From Minisyncoccota bacterium (lineage in GTDB: Bacteria > Patescibacteriota > Minisyncoccia > Phycocordibacterales > UBA9973), in NCBI GenBank assembly GCA_018061145.1, contig JAGOUR010000002.1, forward strand, positions 1,939-65,938: a DNA stretch of 64,000 nt, in the 5' to 3' direction. Made by a program: the position numbers and the translations under genes. Of the stretch, positions 9,573 through 20,039 are shown piece after piece. Under the pieces are notes generated by a model. The model was not told the origin of the DNA. It saw only the letters and a list, made by a program, of their open reading frames with translations, and searched no databases. Numbering within the stretch: position 1 is the stretch's first letter; each line of letters opens with the position of its first letter.

Positions 9573-9851
9573 TTATTGGGATTGTTCAGAGAGGAGGATT
9601 TTCAGTTTTGCTGAGGGGCCGCCGCGATTATAGTGGCCGACGTTTTTGACTGTCAGGTTTTTACCCTTGCCCGCAGGCACGACACGGTGACACGGCACAT
9701 CCGGCAGGAAATTATTTTTCATAATCGTCCCCACCGCCCGCGCCCCGCGCGGGCTACCAGCACACCTTGCCACCTCGCCGTACGTCATAGTTTTTCCAGC
9801 AGGAATCTTCCGTACAACATTTAAAACCTTTTGAGTAAATGATTTTTTCAT
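9573..9851 (-). CDS. ogt: methylated-DNA-protein-cysteine methyltransferase (MGMT/Ogt DNA-binding domain type); markedly GC-rich
   Basis: TYGEVA...PCHRVV has the active-site Cys in PCHRV. Local GC content is far above its surroundings. Confidence 0.8.
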   Translation of the reverse strand: MKKSFTQKVLNVVRKIPAGKTMTYGEVARCAGSPRGARAVGTIMKNNFLPDVPCHRVVPAGKGKNLTVKNVGHYNRGGPSAKLKILLSEQSQ

Positions 9852-10071: not shown

Positions 10072-11208
10072 CTATATTAGTTCTCCATTAAATGCTTCTC
10101 GTAAATAGGCTTTTTCTAGTTTTTTCAAATCCTCAAGTTGGGATTTTTGAAGTTCAACTGCTTGACGAACTTTTTCCGAAAGAGCATCAAGTTTGGCAAC
10201 TATTTTCTTTTGTTCAACAAGAAATGGAAGTGGAAGTTGAATTTTTTTAAGCTCCTTTACTGCGGCAATATTTTTAATTGCCATACCCTTAACATGATCT
10301 GTATTCCCAAATAGATAATCTTTGAGTGCGTATTTTAAATATTCACCTAATATTTTTTTATTTGGAGAAATTTTTAGAAGGGCTTGATTTATTATACCTT
10401 TTCTAAATTTATTTGGAATAATTATTAATTTACCAATAGTCCCTGAGCAGCTCATTAATATATCACCCGAAGAAACAGAAAATCTTCTCATCTCAACAAA
10501 TTTTTCTGGTGCAATAAAGTATCTAAAATTTTCAAGATCATTATCAATAACATTTCCTTGTTCCCAAACAGCATCTCCTTTGGGTACAAAAATTTCTTTC
10601 TTTAGAGATCCACCAAATGGTCCTCTAACAAGAGTTGCCACTTCTTCAAGATTAACAATACTGGATCTTTTTCTTTCTTCTCTAAAAATTTCACGGAGGG
10701 TCTGAGAGAGAATTTTTTCAGTGCTAGCAATAGCCTCTTCACGCAATCTCCTCGCTTCCTTAATCTTCTCCATCTTCCTATCCAACTTCGCGACAATTTC
10801 CTTTTGAGTTTTTAAAGGTGGGAGAGGGATTTCAATTCCTCTAAAAGCATCAATGTGCAAATTCCTTTGTGCTTGTCCTCTACCTAAAGAATAAATTAAG
10901 TCCTCTGAAGCAAATAAAAATTTATCAAGAAAATCCTGAGATAAAATATTGCCATCTTTAGTTGAAATAGACAAACCGGAATCATTTAGAAAAAATTTAC
11001 CTAAAACCTTACGCACGCAATTTCTAGACATAGCAAACCTAGAAACAATAGTACAATCTTCTCTATTGTATTCATTTAAAGTAAAAGTTTTTCCTCCACC
11101 TCCATATACATAAAAATCCCCAGGAATAATTCTAGACCTTACTACTCTTGTCCCATAATCTATATTACAAACTTCATTTAGTTTTTTTATTTGCCAATTA
11201 ATTTTCAT
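10072..11208 (-). CDS. hsdS: type I restriction-modification specificity subunit HsdS (two TRDs)
   Basis: The duplicated conserved spacers LPPLKTQKEIVAKLD and LPLPFLVEQKKIVAKLD sit between two variable target-recognition domains. Confidence 0.85.
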   Translation of the reverse strand: MKINWQIKKLNEVCNIDYGTRVVRSRIIPGDFYVYGGGGKTFTLNEYNREDCTIVSRFAMSRNCVRKVLGKFFLNDSGLSISTKDGNILSQDFLDKFLFASEDLIYSLGRGQAQRNLHIDAFRGIEIPLPPLKTQKEIVAKLDRKMEKIKEARRLREEAIASTEKILSQTLREIFREERKRSSIVNLEEVATLVRGPFGGSLKKEIFVPKGDAVWEQGNVIDNDLENFRYFIAPEKFVEMRRFSVSSGDILMSCSGTIGKLIIIPNKFRKGIINQALLKISPNKKILGEYLKYALKDYLFGNTDHVKGMAIKNIAAVKELKKIQLPLPFLVEQKKIVAKLDALSEKVRQAVELQKSQLEDLKKLEKAYLREAFNGELI

Positions 11209-11210
11209 AA

Positions 11211-12668
11211 TTATTTACTCGGTGAAGGATAAATTAAGCCGTCAATAATTATTAATTCTGGTGATTTAATTCCATTTTTAAAATTTTCTTCATATTTATT
11301 TTTTAAAACTTCAATATCTGTAATTGGTTTCTTTTTTGTAGCCAATTGTTTTTTAACAATTATTACAACATAAAATGAGTAACATGCTTTTTCTCCTTTC
11401 TCATATTTTTTCAGTTGCTCTTCATATCCATGCATAATATCATTAGTATTTTTCTTAAGCTCCACAAGAACTTTCTCTTTTCGACTTTTTGCAAACCAAA
11501 AATCAACTGGACCTGTACTTAATTTTGATTCTCGTGCATGGGGTATGTTTGTATAAGAACAATGCACGTCAGCTATACCATTAAAAATCATCTGAGCAAC
11601 ATCTTCTCTATGAGGTCTTTCTTTAATAGGAACATGGGTTTTTGTTCTATGGTATAGAAGATTTGAATTTCCCATATCTTCTATGTGCCTTCTAAAACTA
11701 TTAACAATATCACGGACAAGATTTGACATATCTTCGCAAGAAGATATTACTTTTTTTGTGCTATTATATTTTTTTGCATATTCCTCAATAGCGCATTTTG
11801 ATTGATAAAAACCTTTTTCATCCAAATCTGTACTGTATGATTCAACTTCTTTTTTTCTATAAATTTCAAGAAGTTTTTTAAAAGATTTTTTAAATTCTTC
11901 TATTTCATTTTTACTCAACGAACGTATATTTTTAAGTTGCTCTTGAACTACAGGAAGTATTATTCCACTAAATTCTTTTCTTAATTTATCATTATATTGG
12001 GCAGCTTCTTGAACACCATCCCAATCAGATGCTAAAGGTAGAGCAGATACATAATCAAGGGGTACAAATATAATTTGATGGTTTTTAAATGGATGAGTAG
12101 GTAAATAATATTCATTATTGTTTATTAAATATTTTTTTGTTTTTATATTTAATTTTTTACTTACATTTTGCGTAAAAATACAAAGATCATCATACAAAAT
12201 ATATGAAGATAAATCACTAATACTATCTGGGCCATATCCATCAACGAACAGAGCCATTATTTCCACAAGCTCAGGATCATCTATCCCAACTCTTATCAAC
12301 TCAGCAATAGAGAAAACTATTTTCTTTGCAATTGATCTTGGTATTGCTGGACCAGTATCAGTTTTACTGCCGTAACCAATAGAAAGACCTTTGGGCTCTT
12401 TCCCGGCTATCATACTTATTGCTTTTTCCTGAAGCTGAGGAGAGTCTTCTGAATTTTTAATAATTCTAATTAAATCAGAAAAGTACTTTTTTATTTTTTC
12501 ATTAGACTTGTCAAAAACTCCTTTTTTATTTTTCAAAAATACCAATCTTGGATCTATAAAATATGGGGTGTCCACACCCAAAGTAATATCTAAAACTCCT
12601 TCTTCTTTTAAGATTAAATGATCTATGTCCAAATAAGTACTCAGGGCGATAGTTTGTCTTGTGATCAT
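11211..12668 (-). CDS. unknown 485-aa protein embedded between hsdM and hsdS; the C-terminus carries a PD-(D/E)xK-like motif resembling YhcG/DUF1016
   Basis: It overlaps the hsdM stop and abuts the hsdS start. The C-terminus reads GPVDFWFAKSRKEKVLVELKK...HGYEEQLKKY, which follows the D-hh-F/Y ... hhh-ELK ... GQ/EQ..Y pattern. I recognise no P-loop or other motif in the N-terminal 370 aa. Confidence 0.6.
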   Translation of the reverse strand: MITRQTIALSTYLDIDHLILKEEGVLDITLGVDTPYFIDPRLVFLKNKKGVFDKSNEKIKKYFSDLIRIIKNSEDSPQLQEKAISMIAGKEPKGLSIGYGSKTDTGPAIPRSIAKKIVFSIAELIRVGIDDPELVEIMALFVDGYGPDSISDLSSYILYDDLCIFTQNVSKKLNIKTKKYLINNNEYYLPTHPFKNHQIIFVPLDYVSALPLASDWDGVQEAAQYNDKLRKEFSGIILPVVQEQLKNIRSLSKNEIEEFKKSFKKLLEIYRKKEVESYSTDLDEKGFYQSKCAIEEYAKKYNSTKKVISSCEDMSNLVRDIVNSFRRHIEDMGNSNLLYHRTKTHVPIKERPHREDVAQMIFNGIADVHCSYTNIPHARESKLSTGPVDFWFAKSRKEKVLVELKKNTNDIMHGYEEQLKKYEKGEKACYSFYVVIIVKKQLATKKKPITDIEVLKNKYEENFKNGIKSPELIIIDGLIYPSPSK

Positions 12669-14095
12669 ATATTCTTCAAAATATCACTAAAAGTATTTGT
12701 AATTTGACCTTCGAGGGACTGAATTCTTTTAATCAAATCCTTTGAACTCAATTCCTCCTCCACTTCCCCGCCCTTTGGATTCTTGAAATCAAGATTAAAA
12801 TTGCGAGATTTTATATCGGCAATAGATACTTTCCATGCATTTTCACCTGACTTTTTATTCTTGAACCACTTTGTTACTGGCTCAAATTCTGCATCTGTGA
12901 TGCCACGATTCTTTGTATATTGCTTCATTCCTGCTGGTAAAGGCATCTGATAGTACCAGACGTCCTTTGTAGGCTGACCCTTTGTGAAGAATACTAGATT
13001 AGTATTTACTCCAGCATATGGCTGGAATACTCCGGCTGGTAATCGGATGATAGTATGCAAATTACAATCTTCGAGAAGTTTTTCTTTAATGCGAGATTTT
13101 ACCCCTTCACCAAAGAGTGAGCCGTCTGGGAGGACAATACCGACTCGGCCACCAGGCTTCAATAATGCCATAAATAATACAAGAAAAAGATCAGCTGTTT
13201 CCTTTGTGCGAAAATCTGCTGGGAAGTTTGCCTCAGTGCCGTCTTTTACACTGCCACCGAATGGAGGATTCGCAATGATAACATCTACACGGTCTTTTGG
13301 ACCATATTCACGAAGTGGGTGCGAGAGCATATCACCACGCTTTATCTGCTGTGGAATTTCTACTCCATGAAGAATCATATTTGTAATAGCGAGCAAGTGC
13401 GGAAGAGGCTTCAACTCTACACCATGAATTTGGTTTTGAAGCTTAGATTCGTCTTTTTTAGTTTTGATTTCTCCACTATTGCGAATATATTCCAGTGCGC
13501 TAATGAGGAATCCGCCAGTACCACATGCGGGATCAAGAATATCTTCACCTAATTTTGGATCAAGGGTATTTACAATAAAATTCGTCAGAGGACGAGGTGT
13601 ATAGTACTCACCAGCATTGCCAGCATTCTGAAGTTGCTTGAGCAAATGTTCGTATATTTCATTGAAATGATGGCGATCATCCTTACTATTGAAATCTATC
13701 TCATTTATTTTATTCACCACTTGACGAATCAGTGTGCCAGACTTCATGTAGTTGTAGGTATCCTCAAAAACCTCTTTGACTATCATACCTCGAGGATCGT
13801 CACTGCTATTGAATTTCAGATCTTTTAGTTGCTTGAAAAGTTTATTGTTTATGAAATCTAGCATCTCATCGCCAGTGATGCCTTCGGCATTGCTCGCCCA
13901 GTTGCGCCAGCGAAGATCCTCTGGAATAGGAGAAATGTATTTTGTGTCGACAAGCTCGTATTCCTTTTCTTTGTCGTCGAAAATCTTCAGAAATAAAAGC
14001 CATACTAGCTGAGAAAGACGCTGTGCATCACCATCCACACCCGCGTCCTTGCGCATAATGTCTTGAATATTTTTAATTATAGATTGTATGGCCAT
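12665..14095 (-). CDS. hsdM: type I R-M N6-adenine DNA methyltransferase HsdM
   Basis: The AdoMet motif LDPACGTGGFL and the catalytic motif IIANPPFGG are present. Confidence 0.9.
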   Translation of the reverse strand: MAIQSIIKNIQDIMRKDAGVDGDAQRLSQLVWLLFLKIFDDKEKEYELVDTKYISPIPEDLRWRNWASNAEGITGDEMLDFINNKLFKQLKDLKFNSSDDPRGMIVKEVFEDTYNYMKSGTLIRQVVNKINEIDFNSKDDRHHFNEIYEHLLKQLQNAGNAGEYYTPRPLTNFIVNTLDPKLGEDILDPACGTGGFLISALEYIRNSGEIKTKKDESKLQNQIHGVELKPLPHLLAITNMILHGVEIPQQIKRGDMLSHPLREYGPKDRVDVIIANPPFGGSVKDGTEANFPADFRTKETADLFLVLFMALLKPGGRVGIVLPDGSLFGEGVKSRIKEKLLEDCNLHTIIRLPAGVFQPYAGVNTNLVFFTKGQPTKDVWYYQMPLPAGMKQYTKNRGITDAEFEPVTKWFKNKKSGENAWKVSIADIKSRNFNLDFKNPKGGEVEEELSSKDLIKRIQSLEGQITNTFSDILKNI

Positions 14096-14096
14096 G

Positions 14097-15269
14097 TTAT
14101 TTTTTGTTTATAAATTCAGAATCGAATATCTTATAATACTTTGTATAAATATACTTTTGACCATATTTTACATCACCCAATGGCTCTAAAATATCTAAAT
14201 CAATCAACCTTTGAATCATCTTGTATGCACCGGGTTGTGTATAATTTGTCCAGTTTTCTATATCTGCAATACCAACTATAGGCTGTTTGTATAATTGTTG
14301 CAAAACCTCAAATGTTTTGGATGCTGTTTTGACTCCAAGTGTCTGAATTTTTGCATGATCCTTTTCTCTAAGTGCAATAATCTTTTCACATGTTTCTATT
14401 GAAGACTGTGCTGTATCCACAACCCCATCTAAAAAGAAATTGAGCCACCCCTCAATATCACTCTCTTCATCATGATAACTGGCCAATTTTGAATAATAAA
14501 GTTTTTGATATTTTTTAAAATAACTTGAAAGATATAAAACAGGTAATTCCAAAAGCCCTGCCTTGTGTAAATAAAGAGTTATCAGCATTCTACCAGTACG
14601 ACCATTACCATCAGTAAATGGATGTATAGTTTCAAATTGAGCATGTAAAAGACCTGCTTTTATGAGCGCTGGAAAGTCATCTTTTGCATGAATAAATTTT
14701 TCAAGCTCATCTAATGCATTTTTCATATCAGAAACATTAGGTGGAATAAAGCTTGCATCCTTTGGAAGTCGTGTGCCAATCCAATTCTGAGAATTTCTAA
14801 ACTCTCCAGGATATGCATGCTGTGTAGATCGAGCACCTTTCATTAATTTTTCATGAATTTCTCTAATTAATCGTAATGAAAGAGGAAAATCAACAATTCG
14901 CTTCATTGCATAATTAACTGCTTTGATATAATAAACAATATCATGAACATCACTGCCGTCAACAGCTCCATACTCTGAAGAAGCACCTACCGCTACAGCA
15001 TCCTGAAATGTCGCTTGAGTACCTTCGATCTGACTAGAATAAGTAGCGTCTTTCTTAATAAACATTAATAAGAAGAAGTCTTTGTCTGGTAAAAGTTTTG
15101 TAATACCATCAAGTTTACCTAAATAATGAGATGCCTCACTTTGTTTTTTATAAAGCTTCCCAGAAAATTCAAAATCACCAGGAAAGGTGTTTGGTAAAAA
15201 TGTTTTAAGCCCATCTTTTTCTGGTCTATAAATTCCTATTGAGTATGTTTTTTTATTGTTTGTATTCAT
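14097..15269 (-). CDS. Fic/DOC family protein inside the type I R-M operon
   Basis: The Fic motif is HPFTDGNGRTGRML. A C-terminal wHTH-like region follows. Confidence 0.85.
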   Translation of the reverse strand: MNTNNKKTYSIGIYRPEKDGLKTFLPNTFPGDFEFSGKLYKKQSEASHYLGKLDGITKLLPDKDFFLLMFIKKDATYSSQIEGTQATFQDAVAVGASSEYGAVDGSDVHDIVYYIKAVNYAMKRIVDFPLSLRLIREIHEKLMKGARSTQHAYPGEFRNSQNWIGTRLPKDASFIPPNVSDMKNALDELEKFIHAKDDFPALIKAGLLHAQFETIHPFTDGNGRTGRMLITLYLHKAGLLELPVLYLSSYFKKYQKLYYSKLASYHDEESDIEGWLNFFLDGVVDTAQSSIETCEKIIALREKDHAKIQTLGVKTASKTFEVLQQLYKQPIVGIADIENWTNYTQPGAYKMIQRLIDLDILEPLGDVKYGQKYIYTKYYKIFDSEFINKK

Positions 15270-15325
15270 ATGATAGATACTAACATTTTATACCTTTTCG
15301 TTTGTATTGTCAATATACATACAAA

Positions 15326-17674
15326 CTAACATAAATAAAGGCTATTTTGTATAGTTCTAATAACTTCTAAGTATTTTTCTCTCCCACCGAAAATTTCATT
15401 TACAATCTCAACTGGTGTACCAAAATTTGTAAAAGGAGATACTTGTAAATCACCAATATCATCTATAGCGGTAATACCCGTATCTGCATATTTTTCCAAA
15501 AGAGCATCTATCACCTCTCGTGCTTTACCTTCGTATTTTGCAAAGTAATCATTCTTTCTTACATTCTCTGCGCGTTCTTTGCGGGTGAGGGGCTTCTTGC
15601 CATAAGCTATATGACAGACAAGATCAAATGGGTCCAAATTTTTACCAACTTCTTTTTCTAATTCTTCAAAAAATACACCCTGCTTTTTTAATTCTTCTAT
15701 TATTATTTCTTTTTTATCACTCTGATTCCAAGCACTCAAAAAAGAATCCAAAGATGAATATTCATTTAAAATATTTTTCTTTGAATAATCTTTCAAAGAT
15801 TCAGTGATTAATTTTCCATCTTCGCCTATATATTGAACACGCTCATTTATAACTTTTACATCAATACCATTTACATAAAATTTTGTACGAGGCTCACTAA
15901 CAATACCACCAATATTTATATTTGGCTTTGGGTAATTGATAGGTTCTGGGTCTTTAGGATCAATGGGGTCTTCAGGTGGACTCAGAGGGTCGTCACCTTT
16001 CGGTTCATAGACAACAACAGGGTCACCATCAAAATCTGGGTCAGCAAAAAGCTCTGTGACACTCCTGAAATCCATAATAGTAAAATACATTTTATTGTAA
16101 TCCTCTCGGACACGAGTACCACGACCGATTATTTGCTTGAATTCAGTCATAGATCCAATATTTTGATCAAGAACGATCAATCTACAAGTTTGAGCGTCCA
16201 CTCCTGTAGTCATGAGTTTTGAAGTGACTGCTATAACCGGATAGGGATTTTCTGGGTCAATAAAATTATCCAATTCTCTCTTACCCTCTTCATTGTCTCC
16301 GGTAATACGTACAACATATTTGCGATTTTCGGCAACCATATCAGCATTTTCATTTGCTAATGCTTGACGCATGCGAACAGCATGATCTATATCCACACAG
16401 AAAACAATCGTTTTTTGCATACGATCTGTTTCTTTCATATATTCAGTAATTTTTCTAGCTACAATTTCTGTGCGCTCGTCTATAACTAAATCACGATCAA
16501 AATCTTTTGTATTATAAACACGATCAGGAATCTCATTGCCGTATTTATCTGTCTTGCCGGCCTCTGGTCTATACCCCTCCACATCACGATCGATAATAAT
16601 TCGAATAACCTTGTACGGAGCAAGAAAACCATCATCTATACCCTGTTTTAATGAATAAGTATAAATAGGCTCTCCAAAATATGACTGAGTAGAGATATCT
16701 TTTGTTTCTTTTGGTGTAGCGGTAAGGCCGATCTGTGTAGCATTTGAATAATAATCCAAAACTTCACGCCAAGCGGAGTCGTCTTTTGCACTACCACGGT
16801 GACACTCGTCCACAATGATCAAATCAAAAAAGTCTGGAGAAAATTGTTTAAAAATATTCTTCTCCTCTTCGTTTCCAGTAATCCCCTGATATAGAGCAAG
16901 ATAAACTTCGTAAGATTTATCAACATTTCGGTTTTCTATTTTCGTCATTTTGTCTCCAAAATGCTTGAAATCATTGATCATAGTCTGGTCAGCTAATATA
17001 TTTCTATCAACAAGAAATAATATTCTTTTTTTAGATTTTGACTTCCATAAACGCCAAATAATCTGAAATGCAGTATACGTCTTACCTGTACCCGTAGCCA
17101 TCACCAAAAGAATACGCTTTTGGGCTTTTGCTACAGCTTCTACTGTTCTATTTATTGCTACTCTTTGAAAATATCTAGGAGATTTACCTTTAAGCTCCTG
17201 AAAATATTCTTCAGAAATTATATTTTCGATATTATTATCTATCCCTTTAGCTGTTTTATATCTTTCAAATAACTCCTCAGGTGACGGGAATTTATCTAAA
17301 GATATTTCTCTTTCTTTAACCCCCTCTGCCACAAATCGATCATGTTCAATAAAAGCATCCCCATTGGAACTAAAAACAAAAGGAATATCCAGAGCTTCAG
17401 CATAACCAAGACCCTGCTCCATACCAGCACCTACTCCATGATTATTGTCTTTAGCTTCAATGATAGCTATCGGTAAATCATTTTTGTAATACAAGATAAT
17501 ATCAGCACGCTTTTGATCTCCACGAGAAACAGTCTTGCCACGTACGGTAATCTTGCCGGCAGTAAAAGTAACCTGTTCACGGATTTGATGCTTTAAATCC
17601 CAACCACTATCTGTAATGGCCGGTAGTATATATTTTGAGCAAATATCTTGTTCTGTTAGTGATTTTTTGTCCAT
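15326..17674 (-). CDS. hsdR: type I restriction endonuclease R subunit HsdR
   Basis: The N-terminal PD-(D/E)xK region is ADIILYY...IAIIEAKD. The SF2 helicase motifs are VMATGTGKT and DECHRGS. Confidence 0.9.
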   Translation of the reverse strand: MDKKSLTEQDICSKYILPAITDSGWDLKHQIREQVTFTAGKITVRGKTVSRGDQKRADIILYYKNDLPIAIIEAKDNNHGVGAGMEQGLGYAEALDIPFVFSSNGDAFIEHDRFVAEGVKEREISLDKFPSPEELFERYKTAKGIDNNIENIISEEYFQELKGKSPRYFQRVAINRTVEAVAKAQKRILLVMATGTGKTYTAFQIIWRLWKSKSKKRILFLVDRNILADQTMINDFKHFGDKMTKIENRNVDKSYEVYLALYQGITGNEEEKNIFKQFSPDFFDLIIVDECHRGSAKDDSAWREVLDYYSNATQIGLTATPKETKDISTQSYFGEPIYTYSLKQGIDDGFLAPYKVIRIIIDRDVEGYRPEAGKTDKYGNEIPDRVYNTKDFDRDLVIDERTEIVARKITEYMKETDRMQKTIVFCVDIDHAVRMRQALANENADMVAENRKYVVRITGDNEEGKRELDNFIDPENPYPVIAVTSKLMTTGVDAQTCRLIVLDQNIGSMTEFKQIIGRGTRVREDYNKMYFTIMDFRSVTELFADPDFDGDPVVVYEPKGDDPLSPPEDPIDPKDPEPINYPKPNINIGGIVSEPRTKFYVNGIDVKVINERVQYIGEDGKLITESLKDYSKKNILNEYSSLDSFLSAWNQSDKKEIIIEELKKQGVFFEELEKEVGKNLDPFDLVCHIAYGKKPLTRKERAENVRKNDYFAKYEGKAREVIDALLEKYADTGITAIDDIGDLQVSPFTNFGTPVEIVNEIFGGREKYLEVIRTIQNSLYLC

Positions 17675-17751: not shown

Positions 17752-18411
17752 CTAAAGTAGATTTTTCTGCTGAAAGCTTAGATAACTATTTTTTGTGACT
17801 ATTATATGATCTACAATCTCCACACCGATTATTTTACCAGACTGAACAAGCCTCCTGGTCACTTCTATATCATCTGCAGATGGATTAAGCTCTCCTGATG
17901 GATGGTTGTGAGCAATAAGAATACTAGAGGCATGCAAAGTCAGAGCAGGCTCAAAAACCTCTCTAGGATGGACCAGTGATGCATTTAATGTACCAATAGA
18001 AATAATCTGACGTTCTATTAGTCTATTTTGAGTATCTAAATAAAAAGCAATAAAATGCTCTCTTTTTGTAGATCTTATATCAGAACAGAAATTCCAAACA
18101 TCCAAAGAGGAAAGTATTTCTATCTGATTTTCAGTATTCAACCTTTTGCTAAGTTCCAGAGCAGAGAGAACTTGGGATGCTTTTGCTTTACCTAGACCTT
18201 TTATTTCTAATAGATTTTTTAAGGTAATATTTCCTATTCCATCCTTCTTTACTAAGATTAAAATTCTTTTCGAAAGTTCTAATACATTCAACCCCTTAAT
18301 GCCTGAACCTAAAAGTAGAGCTAATAGCTCATAGTCCTTTAACTTATCAACACCATACTTTGCCAATTTCTCACGAGGTAAATCAACTTTTTGAAGTTGT
18401 TTTAATTTCAT
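17752..18411 (-). CDS. radC: RadC-family JAB/MPN-domain protein
   Basis: A helix-hairpin-helix-like N-terminus precedes HNHPSG, the JAMM-like motif. Confidence 0.85.
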   Translation of the reverse strand: MKLKQLQKVDLPREKLAKYGVDKLKDYELLALLLGSGIKGLNVLELSKRILILVKKDGIGNITLKNLLEIKGLGKAKASQVLSALELSKRLNTENQIEILSSLDVWNFCSDIRSTKREHFIAFYLDTQNRLIERQIISIGTLNASLVHPREVFEPALTLHASSILIAHNHPSGELNPSADDIEVTRRLVQSGKIIGVEIVDHIIVTKNSYLSFQQKNLL

Positions 18412-18429
18412 AAATAAATTATATCATAA

Positions 18430-18906
18430 TTAATTGTCAGTCAACCCCACAATATAATCAAAATGCTTTTGGGAGACGGGTTGGATTGACAGGCGGGAGC
18501 CACGGGCGCGGACCAGCATGCCCTCGAGAGCCGGGTCAATCTTGATCTCGGCTAGGGTCACAGGATTCCGGAATTTGCGAACAAAGGCCATATCTACGCA
18601 GTGCCAGATGGGCCTATCCTTTGTCGCCCTCAGATCATAGTGTTCATCCCCCTTTGCAAACTGCGTCTCGTCTGGATGCGATGCCGAGGCCACTCGGGCT
18701 ATGCCGTATACGCCAGTGGGTGCGTCAGTAGTGCCATTGGAATGGTAAAAGAGGGCCATATCGCCTACGGACATATCATTCATCATAAAATTGCGGGATT
18801 GATAATTGCGAATACCAGTCCAAGCCACCTTCTTATCCCTTTTCAGATCGTCTATCGAGTAGCAATCCCCTTCACTTTTAATTAGCCAGTATTTTTTTGT
18901 TTTCAT
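18430..18906 (-). CDS. EVE (PUA-like, DUF55) domain protein; GC-rich; start at the internal Met MKTKKYWLIK
   Basis: YWLIKSEGDCYSIDDL...VAWTGIRNYQSRNFM...GDMALFYHS is the typical EVE signature. The upstream part of the ORF-track entry overlaps tspO. Confidence 0.75.
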   Translation of the reverse strand: MKTKKYWLIKSEGDCYSIDDLKRDKKVAWTGIRNYQSRNFMMNDMSVGDMALFYHSNGTTDAPTGVYGIARVASASHPDETQFAKGDEHYDLRATKDRPIWHCVDMAFVRKFRNPVTLAEIKIDPALEGMLVRARGSRLSIQPVSQKHFDYIVGLTDN

Positions 18907-18917
18907 ATATATAATTT

Positions 18918-19328
18918 CTAACGGGATAGATTCAAATAAGTAATTGTAAATTGTAATACTGTGGCGAAGGTGACCCAGGCTAGGTATGGGATGTTGATCA
19001 GAGATACCCACTTTGCATACGGATATATAGCGACTAATGCCCAGATCAGAGTAGTTAGCACGAGGGCAATATCGATAGCGGCGAGGAGATTGTTCTTTAA
19101 TCCGAATTGAAGATAAGTAAAGAGAAAATTGAAAAATAGATTCAATATAAATGGTAATGCTACCCAAAAAGAAATCTTCTTCTCATAGAGCATAAGAAAA
19201 ACTTTACCAAAAGATACAAATATCAGGACATATAGCACTGTCCACACCGGACCAAATAGCCATGAAGGTGGAGCCCAAGTAGGCCTGATAAGAGTCGAAT
19301 ACCAATTGTATGAGTTGTATTTATCCAT
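18918..19328 (-). CDS. tspO: TspO/MBR tryptophan-rich sensory protein
   Basis: W-rich five-TM protein with PSWLFGPVWTVLY, the TspO signature. Confidence 0.8.
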   Translation of the reverse strand: MDKYNSYNWYSTLIRPTWAPPSWLFGPVWTVLYVLIFVSFGKVFLMLYEKKISFWVALPFILNLFFNFLFTYLQFGLKNNLLAAIDIALVLTTLIWALVAIYPYAKWVSLINIPYLAWVTFATVLQFTITYLNLSR

Positions 19329-19333
19329 CCCGT

Positions 19334-19585
19334 TTAGAGATAGGAAGCGCCAAGTCTGTTCTTGAGATAACGCTTGCCCATTCCCGTTTTTAAATATAAT
19401 TCTCTCGACCGAGCTTTGTGCTCATCTAAACATGCTTCGTAATAAATAATGACAAATGGGCCTCGGTCTTTCGTGTGAGTAGATTTTCCGGTGTTGTGCT
19501 GAATAAGGCGCTTCCGTAGGTCATTTGTGCACCCCGTGTATAATTTACCATCTTTTTTACTTTTAAGTACGTAAGTATAGAACAT
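19334..19585 (-). CDS. GIY-YIG nuclease-domain protein, copy 1
   Basis: FYTYVLKSKKDGKLYTGCTNDLRKRLIQHN is the GIY-YIG motif. Confidence 0.8.
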   Translation of the reverse strand: MFYTYVLKSKKDGKLYTGCTNDLRKRLIQHNTGKSTHTKDRGPFVIIYYEACLDEHKARSRELYLKTGMGKRYLKNRLGASYL

Positions 19586-19787: not shown

Positions 19788-20039
19788 TTAGAGATAGGAA
19801 GCGCCAAGTCTGTTCTTGAGATAACGCTTGCCCATTCCCGTTTTTAAAAATAATTCTCTCGACCGAGCTTTGTGCTCATCTAAACATGCTTCGTAATAAA
19901 TAATGACAAATGGGCCTCGGTCTTTCGTGTGAGTAGATTTTCCGGTGTTGTGCTGAATAAGGCGCTTCCGTAGGTCATTTGTGTACCCCGTGTACATATT
20001 ACCATCTTTTTTACTTTTTATTACGTAAGTATAGAACAT
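19788..20039 (-). CDS. GIY-YIG nuclease-domain protein, copy 2 (about 93% amino-acid identity to copy 1)
   Basis: The protein is near-identical: 6 substitutions in 83 aa. The DNA is near-identical over about 255 bp. Confidence 0.8.
   Translation of the reverse strand: MFYTYVIKSKKDGNMYTGYTNDLRKRLIQHNTGKSTHTKDRGPFVIIYYEACLDEHKARSRELFLKTGMGKRYLKNRLGASYL

Follow-up and report, generated by a model that had tools for sequence, protein, structure and literature searches.

That defence genes can be nested within other defence systems is well established, and the concept is not new. A case in point is PrrC, an anticodon RNase that is regulated by an ABC ATPase and guarded by EcoprrI. PrrC is found almost exclusively embedded in restriction-modification (R-M) systems, and the PDC candidates were defined by their embedding in BREX, DISARM or type I R-M loci (‘guilt-by-embedding’; Payne et al.). 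Two tested defence nucleases contain NucS-like domains: Madara (PDC-S11), first listed as a PADLOC embedding candidate, has an EVE-like sensor and lies beside BREX, and END-Mag has an inactivated EndoIII sensor. Here we describe gene X, an open reading frame (ORF) of 485 codons in the type I R-M operon of a Minisyncoccota bacterium. It was analysed within a 64,000-nucleotide stretch of contig JAGOUR010000002.1, which we refer to as the window. We propose, with a probability of roughly 0.6, that X is accessory cargo: a self-contained DNA nuclease of two modules that depends on a trigger or on DNA modification and serves as a backup to the R-M system.

X is read from an ATG start on the minus strand, and profile searches confirmed the gene order of the original prediction, hsdR, fic, hsdM, X, hsdS. 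The tight spacing described there is also present. The hsdM stop and the X start have a 4-nt ATGA in common (...GAATATATGATCACA...), and only TT separates the TAA stop of X from the hsdS ATG, a gap of 2 nt. The fic gene ends 1 nt ahead of the hsdM start. The X protein is 100% identical to NCBI MBP9715740.1 from a Candidatus Paceibacterota metagenome-assembled genome (MAG), where it is annotated as ‘DUF91 domain-containing protein’. An ORF of this length at 29% GC, with 118 homologues and ~2,570 clusters matching an N-terminal profile, is far beyond chance.

Comparison with the closest relatives of the operon revealed that X is not an R-M subunit but cargo, one of several cassettes that replace one another at a hotspot slot. 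The closest HsdM relative, 98% identical, is in locus L052, which has the same synteny as the window (EVE-RadC-hsdR-fic-hsdM...hsdS...MGMT-like-kinase). The DNA of the two loci is 95.2% identical between positions 18891 and 12665, where the stop codon of hsdM ends, and homology resumes in the conserved segments of hsdS and in the downstream genes; the cassette between them has been swapped (Table 1). The cassette of L052 likewise begins with a 4-nt ATGA overlap of the hsdM stop. The pair is a clean natural experiment, in which two ~95%-identical genomes of the Candidate Phyla Radiation (CPR) diverge exactly from the hsdM stop. The hsdM-hsdS junction serves as a plug-in slot for immune cargo, with X in one genome and an OLD/AriA-class ATPase module in the other. 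Two further relatives also lack X: L053 (HsdM 87% identical) has three unknown genes in the slot, and L054 (HsdM 85% identical) has two genes there and a different gene in place of fic. Since unrelated genes occupy the same slot in L052, L053 and L054, X is interchangeable cargo; an R-M subunit would be expected wherever the orthologous enzyme occurs. In keeping with this status, the GC content of X is low, at 29% (window, 38%; hsdM, 40%). The earlier claim that X is an integral part of the operon does not hold, as a ~95%-identical genome carries another cassette and about two thirds of the loci are solitary. Two signs against the gene had been named at the outset: absence from orthologous R-M loci, which we found, and pseudogene-like decay, of which X shows none.

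The cassette in the L052 slot (L052 7428-9433) encodes a 461-residue ABC ATPase that matches the Old, AriA, AbiLi and GajA models (OLD/AriA/AbiL/GajA-class) and a 207-residue protein without a PADLOC match. The two genes could be an uncharacterised two-gene module.

To place the window among related loci, we used one-genome-per-species contigs and metagenomes, annotated with the proteins of the window. The arrangement hsdM-X-hsdS was found in 9 distinct loci (the window, L003, L004, L016, L024, L026, L035, L037 and L042). About 18 loci, some two thirds of the survey, are solitary, with no type I genes within 6-10 kb. The embedded loci have the gene orders R-M-X-S and M-X-S-R, and their HsdMs are 25-69% identical to that of the window. 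At the hsdM/X junction, seven of the nine have a 4-nt overlap and two have gaps of 4-7 nt. The X/hsdS junction is readable in six, with a 2-3 nt gap in five and a 4-nt overlap in one. In a bootstrapped neighbour-joining tree, the embedded X copies form at least three groups, and embedded L016 pairs with solitary L014 at 100% bootstrap. The X proteins of L035 and L037 are 54-57% identical to solitary copies, compared with 43-44% to the window clade. Those of L003 and L004 are 82% identical to each other and stand behind divergent HsdMs (69% and 37% identical to that of the window, respectively), indicating that X moves between R-M backbones. Two further homologues on MAG contigs (L012 10001-11438 and L015 10001-11444) are each spread over more than one reading frame, which might reflect pseudogenes or errors of assembly.

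These loci bear on the idea of a functional coupling between X and the type I enzyme, with X either kept latent on the HsdM2S core until a phage anti-restriction factor disables the R-M system, in a PrrC-like manner, or recruited by M2S as an extra nuclease. In 9 of 9 embedded loci X lies between hsdM and hsdS with overlaps or with gaps of at most 7 nt, and this position holds across both gene orders, the divergent HsdMs and at least three X lineages. Coupled translation would give amounts of X similar to those of HsdM and HsdS, and PrrC provides a precedent for a gene that occurs almost only inside type I R-M systems (Payne et al.). However, most loci contain no type I genes, the plasmid copies of Proteobacteria are solitary, and the slot accepts unrelated cargo, so that the location of X is attributable to a general hotspot of recombination between the conserved sequences of hsdM and hsdS. 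The operon has a complete hsdR, and thus the R-M system owns a nuclease subunit. PrrC and rlo-type genes resemble X in being non-R-M genes co-expressed within an hsd operon, but X has a DNA-nuclease-type fold and is mostly solitary; with 9 embedded and ~18 solitary loci, its family does not have the near-exclusive type I R-M location of PrrC. Functional coupling is clearly unlikely. If X is accessory cargo, as we propose, its translational coupling to hsdM and hsdS would amount to a common expression unit and nothing more.

The C-terminus of X is a predicted RecB/NucS-type PD-(D/E)xK nuclease domain. An AlphaFold2 model of X, built on 45 homologues, is confident (pLDDT, the predicted local distance difference test score, 84; pTM, the predicted template modelling score, 0.83). 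It contains the core fold of the superfamily, with the D ... (D/E)xK residues correctly placed on strands 2 and 3: Asp389 precedes strand 390-393, the start of the second strand, and Glu403 and Lys405 are within the third strand (399-406). The C-terminal peptide singled out in the original prediction, GPVDFWFAKSRKEKVLVELKK...YEEQLKKY, was located at residues 386-422. The QhxxY motif that follows motif III is Q418-L-K-K-Y422 in X and makes the domain RecB/NucS-like. The RecB motifs have been defined and mutated in the Cas4 protein Pcal_0546 (D123, E136, K138, Q149 and Y153; PMC4176176), and the Q-xxx-Y element and the motif spacing of X agree with these residues. Conservation of the nuclease and N-terminal residues was counted in 231 full-length relatives (Table 1). 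The predicted fold, the conservation of the motifs and the Q-xxx-Y element all uphold the general PD-(D/E)xK assignment that had been made from the peptide, and X presumably cuts DNA. Residues ~281-340 are modelled with higher confidence in the full-length protein than in an N-terminal-only model, which suggests that they pack against the nuclease core.

The likeness to the YhcG/DUF1016 family that had been suggested does not extend beyond the broad PD-(D/E)xK superfamily. None of the 45 family members matches DUF1016/YhcG at E values up to 0.05, and none matches PDDEXK_1, the other profile proposed for checking; membership in both families was rejected. X also differs from Cas4 in having no four-cysteine Fe-S signature, with only Cys370 conserved.

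The N-terminal domain (N-domain) of X is an autonomous module. It is constrained as strongly as the nuclease domain. The near-invariant residues are Asp33, Phe37, Pro40, Glu91, Gly98, Gly106, Asp148, Ser151, Asp152 and Pro203. Among the 231 relatives, Glu91, Asp148 and Asp152 are kept in 231 each, Asp33 and Pro203 in 230 each, and Gly98 and Gly106 in 229 each. The Asp33/Glu91/Asp148/Asp152 signature is also kept in nuclease-less relatives from Lactiplantibacillus, Planococcus and an Acinetobacter plasmid. The equal constraint and the survival of the signature in nuclease-less proteins indicate that the N-domain has a functional site of its own, which is probably metal- or ligand-binding. Structure searches found no solved relative of the N-domain model and no nuclease matches of the N-terminal-only model. 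A helix-hairpin-helix-like reading of the segment G144-Y-G-P-D-S-I-S-D-L was considered and dropped, as it had no structural support.

The N-domain matches PDC-M36A of PADLOC (X residues 30-213, profile positions 28-216 of 457, E 1.4e-9), and the two short Firmicutes relatives match it at E 5e-12 and 5.5e-23. PDC-M36 is a three-gene cassette, FAM_01399>>FAM_00303>>FAM_00303, for which the supplement of the embedding paper (Payne et al.) gives family codes only, without function. The Asp33/Glu91/Asp148/Asp152 residues are common to X and the short relatives that match protein A of this cassette. X differs in that its nuclease is fused in cis and the companion genes of the cassette are missing, the flanking genes being hsdM and hsdS. 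A broader proposal would be that the DUF8370 N-domain represents a fold not recognised before, catalytic or ligand-sensing, and is the hallmark of a widespread immune family. It would act with a nuclease of the RecB-like kind in cis, as X does, or with separate effectors in trans, as PDC-M36 would. Placed in the hsdM-hsdS slot, the domain might then be connected to the methyltransferase core as a guard, set off by neutralisation of the R-M system. We regard this proposal as speculative and unlikely.

As accessory cargo, X could work as follows. The N-domain would bind a cue that marks invading DNA or infection. The cue might be a non-canonical or modified DNA feature, as for Type IV-like enzymes, or a ligand or phage factor, as in abortive infection. 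Its binding would license the metal-dependent nuclease to cut DNA, and X would act as a further defence layer, directed at elements that evade the type I enzyme. A solitary DNase that is constitutively active and has no methyltransferase would be lethal, and the activity of X must therefore be gated. We infer an anti-phage or anti-plasmid role for X, with the N-domain as its sensor or regulator. Madara and END-Mag provide precedents. Like X, each combines a NucS-like PD-(D/E)xK module and a separate non-catalytic domain in one polypeptide, and each is located next to or inside other defence systems. However, the partner domain of X is neither EVE-like nor an inactivated EndoIII, the domain order of Madara is reversed relative to X, in which the nuclease is C-terminal, and X has no PADLOC match to PDC-S11. 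The X family is very large and combines a textbook nuclease site with an equally conserved acidic site in a domain without a solved relative. If active, X would add a new sensor/regulator module to the modular defence nucleases and document a defence mechanism in CPR bacteria, where immunity is little studied.

The solitary copies are found among varied defence and mobile genes. The copy in L022 adjoins ParDE, and that in L025 has AAA_21+RloB, AbiTii and resolvase genes nearby. In L020, the neighbours are LexA, a diverging prophage-like block of methyltransferase and terminase genes, and a reverse transcriptase; part of this context is common to L028 (LexA, the methyltransferase and an HTH gene) and L040 (the methyltransferase/terminase block). 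Plasmid copies have SIR2, DUF3427, GIY-YIG and AAA genes nearby in Rhodobacter, an Eco57I-type methylase, a helicase and AbiEi/Eii in Legionella, and an integrase, XRE regulators and RelE/ParE pairs in Nitrosospira. The clades have no partner gene in common, which, together with the defence and mobile neighbours, is as expected of a single-gene defence or mobile-island element. A nuclease without a cognate methyltransferase is a trait of Type IV systems, and the solitary loci L022, L025, L048 and L049 have no adjacent methyltransferase; a recognisable modified-base reader domain, another Type IV trait, was not found in X.

Two observations concern individual solitary loci. The reverse transcriptase gene of L020 (RVT_1; 12184-13254) is ~3 kb downstream of the X homologue, among unannotated small genes. 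In L006 (7601-9972) and L034 (1693-3912), a MazG-like gene and a Schlafen-group-3 (DUF2075-type) helicase gene are directly upstream of the X homologue, and the three may form a unit; in L006, the helicase and an S24 (LexA-like) peptidase domain form one fused protein.

Such surroundings also invite the view that X is a toxin-like addiction or selfish element, either a nuclease that stabilises its locus or a homing-type endonuclease that inserts at the hsdM-hsdS junction. The breakpoint exactly at the hsdM stop, the near-identical X copies in unrelated R-M backbones and the toxin-antitoxin systems and recombinases that adjoin X would fit, and two possibly frameshifted copies suggest turnover. 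However, the slot is not specific to X, since unrelated cassettes use the same junction, with the same ATGA overlap in L052. In addition, no conserved antitoxin or immunity partner was found, most copies are away from hsd junctions, and a large N-domain conserved across phyla is atypical of homing nucleases. We consider this the least likely of the explanations weighed here.

Several points weigh against X being a gated defence nuclease. The defence role is drawn from genomic context, and the locus sample was retrieved by two peptide patterns, which biases it toward close relatives. Beside the solitary copies there is no conserved partner or immunity gene, only the clade-restricted LexA and MazG plus Schlafen-type helicase genes. 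The N-domain resembles no known modified-base reader, with no EVE, SRA, YTH or EndoIII match, and its invariant acidic residues suggest a metal-binding or catalytic site more than the pocket of a reader. The domain also exists without the nuclease, in proteins of ~300-370 residues, and may itself be the active module. At the sequence level, all matches to named PD-(D/E)xK families are under the Pfam threshold. The NucS_C match to X scores 21.0 bits (residues 355-424), below the gathering score of 24, and only 4 of the 45 family members match NucS_C at all; the sole sub-threshold matches among the 45 are to Tox-REase-9, NucS_C, PDDEXK_10 and SduA_C.

The NucS likeness could also mean that X acts in DNA repair, as a housekeeping or SOS nuclease related to NucS/EndoMS, a role in line with the name of the domain and with the presence of LexA next to the copies of one clade. 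However, the presence of X varies between ~95%-identical genomes, its context is variable, some copies are plasmid-borne and its GC content is low. X is sporadic cargo and not a core gene. The N-domain is unlike anything solved, the NucS N-terminal DNA-binding domain included, the NucS_C score is below threshold, and the one clade with LexA adjacency also borders prophage-like genes. A repair function is very unlikely, and accessory defence cargo remains the reading we prefer.

The family to which X belongs is widespread. X had been called an unknown gene; its function is indeed uncharacterised, but it is catalogued, as a full-length member of Pfam DUF8370+DUF8371 and of PHROG 30194, entries without an assigned function, and its N-domain matches PDC-M36A. 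In precomputed Pfam assignments, DUF8370 (PF28123) and DUF8371 (PF28130) are both given to X (identical protein P0001) and to almost all of its 118 word-indexed homologues, which are nearly all from CPR/Patescibacteria. Truncated homologues indicate that DUF8370 is the N-terminal part and DUF8371 the C-terminal part from ~180-200. PHROG 30194 covers X from residue 6 to 482 (E 1e-72). Searching with an N-terminal profile retrieved 2,569 clusters at 50% identity, 686 of them at E ≤ 1e-30, and most of the top 150 clusters are 460-500 residues long with an X-like architecture. Full-length copies are present on plasmids of Nitrosospira, Rhodobacter and Calothrix. Searches of PDB sequences with the X protein and the family profile returned coiled-coil noise only. 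A BFVD viral structure search gave no match with E below 0.04, and tblastn against the deposited phage genomes of INPHARED gave no match. A literature search for DUF8370, DUF8371 and PDC-M36 found no mention within the library that was searched. A 602-residue homologue on a Legionella adelaidensis plasmid (L050 7001-8809) keeps the N-domain signature and has S/E/H/K/V/Y at the nuclease motif positions; with its motif degraded in this way, it may be nuclease-dead or re-purposed.

Table 1. Features of gene X and its operon in the window; conservation is given as the number of full-length relatives that keep the residue.
Feature	Position	Strand	Basis or remark
hsdR, EcoAI-family (type IB), complete	15326..17674	-	NCBIfam equivalog, 1188 bits vs cut-off 550
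Best sigma-70-like match of the region, in the hsdR-fic gap	15285..15313	-	TTGACA-17-TAAAAT, 11/12
SoFic-like Fic gene, second embedded cargo	14097..15269	-	Pfam Fic_N+Fic; PADLOC SoFic E 7e-108
hsdM, type I methyltransferase	12665..14095	-	profile match; stop overlaps X start by 4 nt
Gene X, 485 aa, Pfam DUF8370+DUF8371, PHROG 30194	11211..12668	-	database match
N-domain, residues 1-210, DUF8370 core	12039..12668	-	mostly helical, short hairpins; PADLOC PDC-M36A match
Low-confidence linker, residues 211-238	11955..12038	-	pLDDT below 50, predicted disordered
Helical region, residues 239-338, N-terminal part of DUF8371	11655..11954	-	model
Predicted PD-(D/E)xK nuclease core, residues 339-485	11211..11654	-	alpha-beta-beta-beta-alpha-beta topology in model
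RecB-type catalytic motifs, E355 to Y422	11403..11606	-	alignment; motif definition Cas4, PMC4176176
E355 codon	11604-11606	-	RecB-type motif; kept 231/231
D389 codon	11502-11504	-	RecB-type motif; kept 225/231
E403 codon	11460-11462	-	RecB-type motif; kept 227/231
K405 codon	11454-11456	-	RecB-type motif; kept 230/231
Q418 codon	11415-11417	-	RecB-type motif; kept 228/231
Y422 codon	11403-11405	-	RecB-type motif; kept 229/231
Swapped cassette, X + first variable hsdS region	10834..12664	-	DNA comparison; no DNA homology to L052
hsdS, specificity subunit	10072..11208	-	two Methylase_S stretches; starts 2 nt past X stop

A scan of the region for promoters and terminators gave counts not above shuffled expectation, and only the intergenic site between hsdR and fic stands out. 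By its consensus match only, it is a possible promoter for fic-hsdM-X-hsdS.

Other parts of the island vary as well. The hsdR-hsdM gap is a second cargo slot, which holds the SoFic-like Fic gene in the window and L052, is empty in L003, L024 and L053, and contains a HATPase_c_2/DUF4325 gene in place of fic in L054 (4941-5996). After hsdS, L052 has four extra genes (10598-12897) that are missing from the window, which makes this another variable patch: a DpnI-like methyl-directed nuclease of 134 residues and three unknown proteins of 191, 224 and 186 residues. Directly upstream of hsdR in the window, an EVE-domain gene (18430-18906, 49% GC) and RadC (17752-18411), both on the minus strand, are kept in L052. 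RadC precedes hsdR in these relatives' counterparts L053 and L054 as well, with a PhdYeFM/ParE pair inserted between RadC and hsdR. Further upstream, on the minus strand, the window has TspO (18918-19328) where L052 has msrA/msrB-type genes (PMSR, SelR). Two 83-residue ORFs of the window (19334-19585 and 19788-20039, minus strand) match a single GIY-YIG region of L052 with 96% and 91% DNA identity and look like a tandem duplication. On the other side of the operon, the minus-strand gene at 9573-9851 encodes a 92-residue protein that consists only of the O6-methylguanine methyltransferase DNA-binding domain (Pfam DNA_binding_1). Its GC content is 50%, compared with the AT-rich operon that it adjoins, and it may be an alkyltransferase-like protein.

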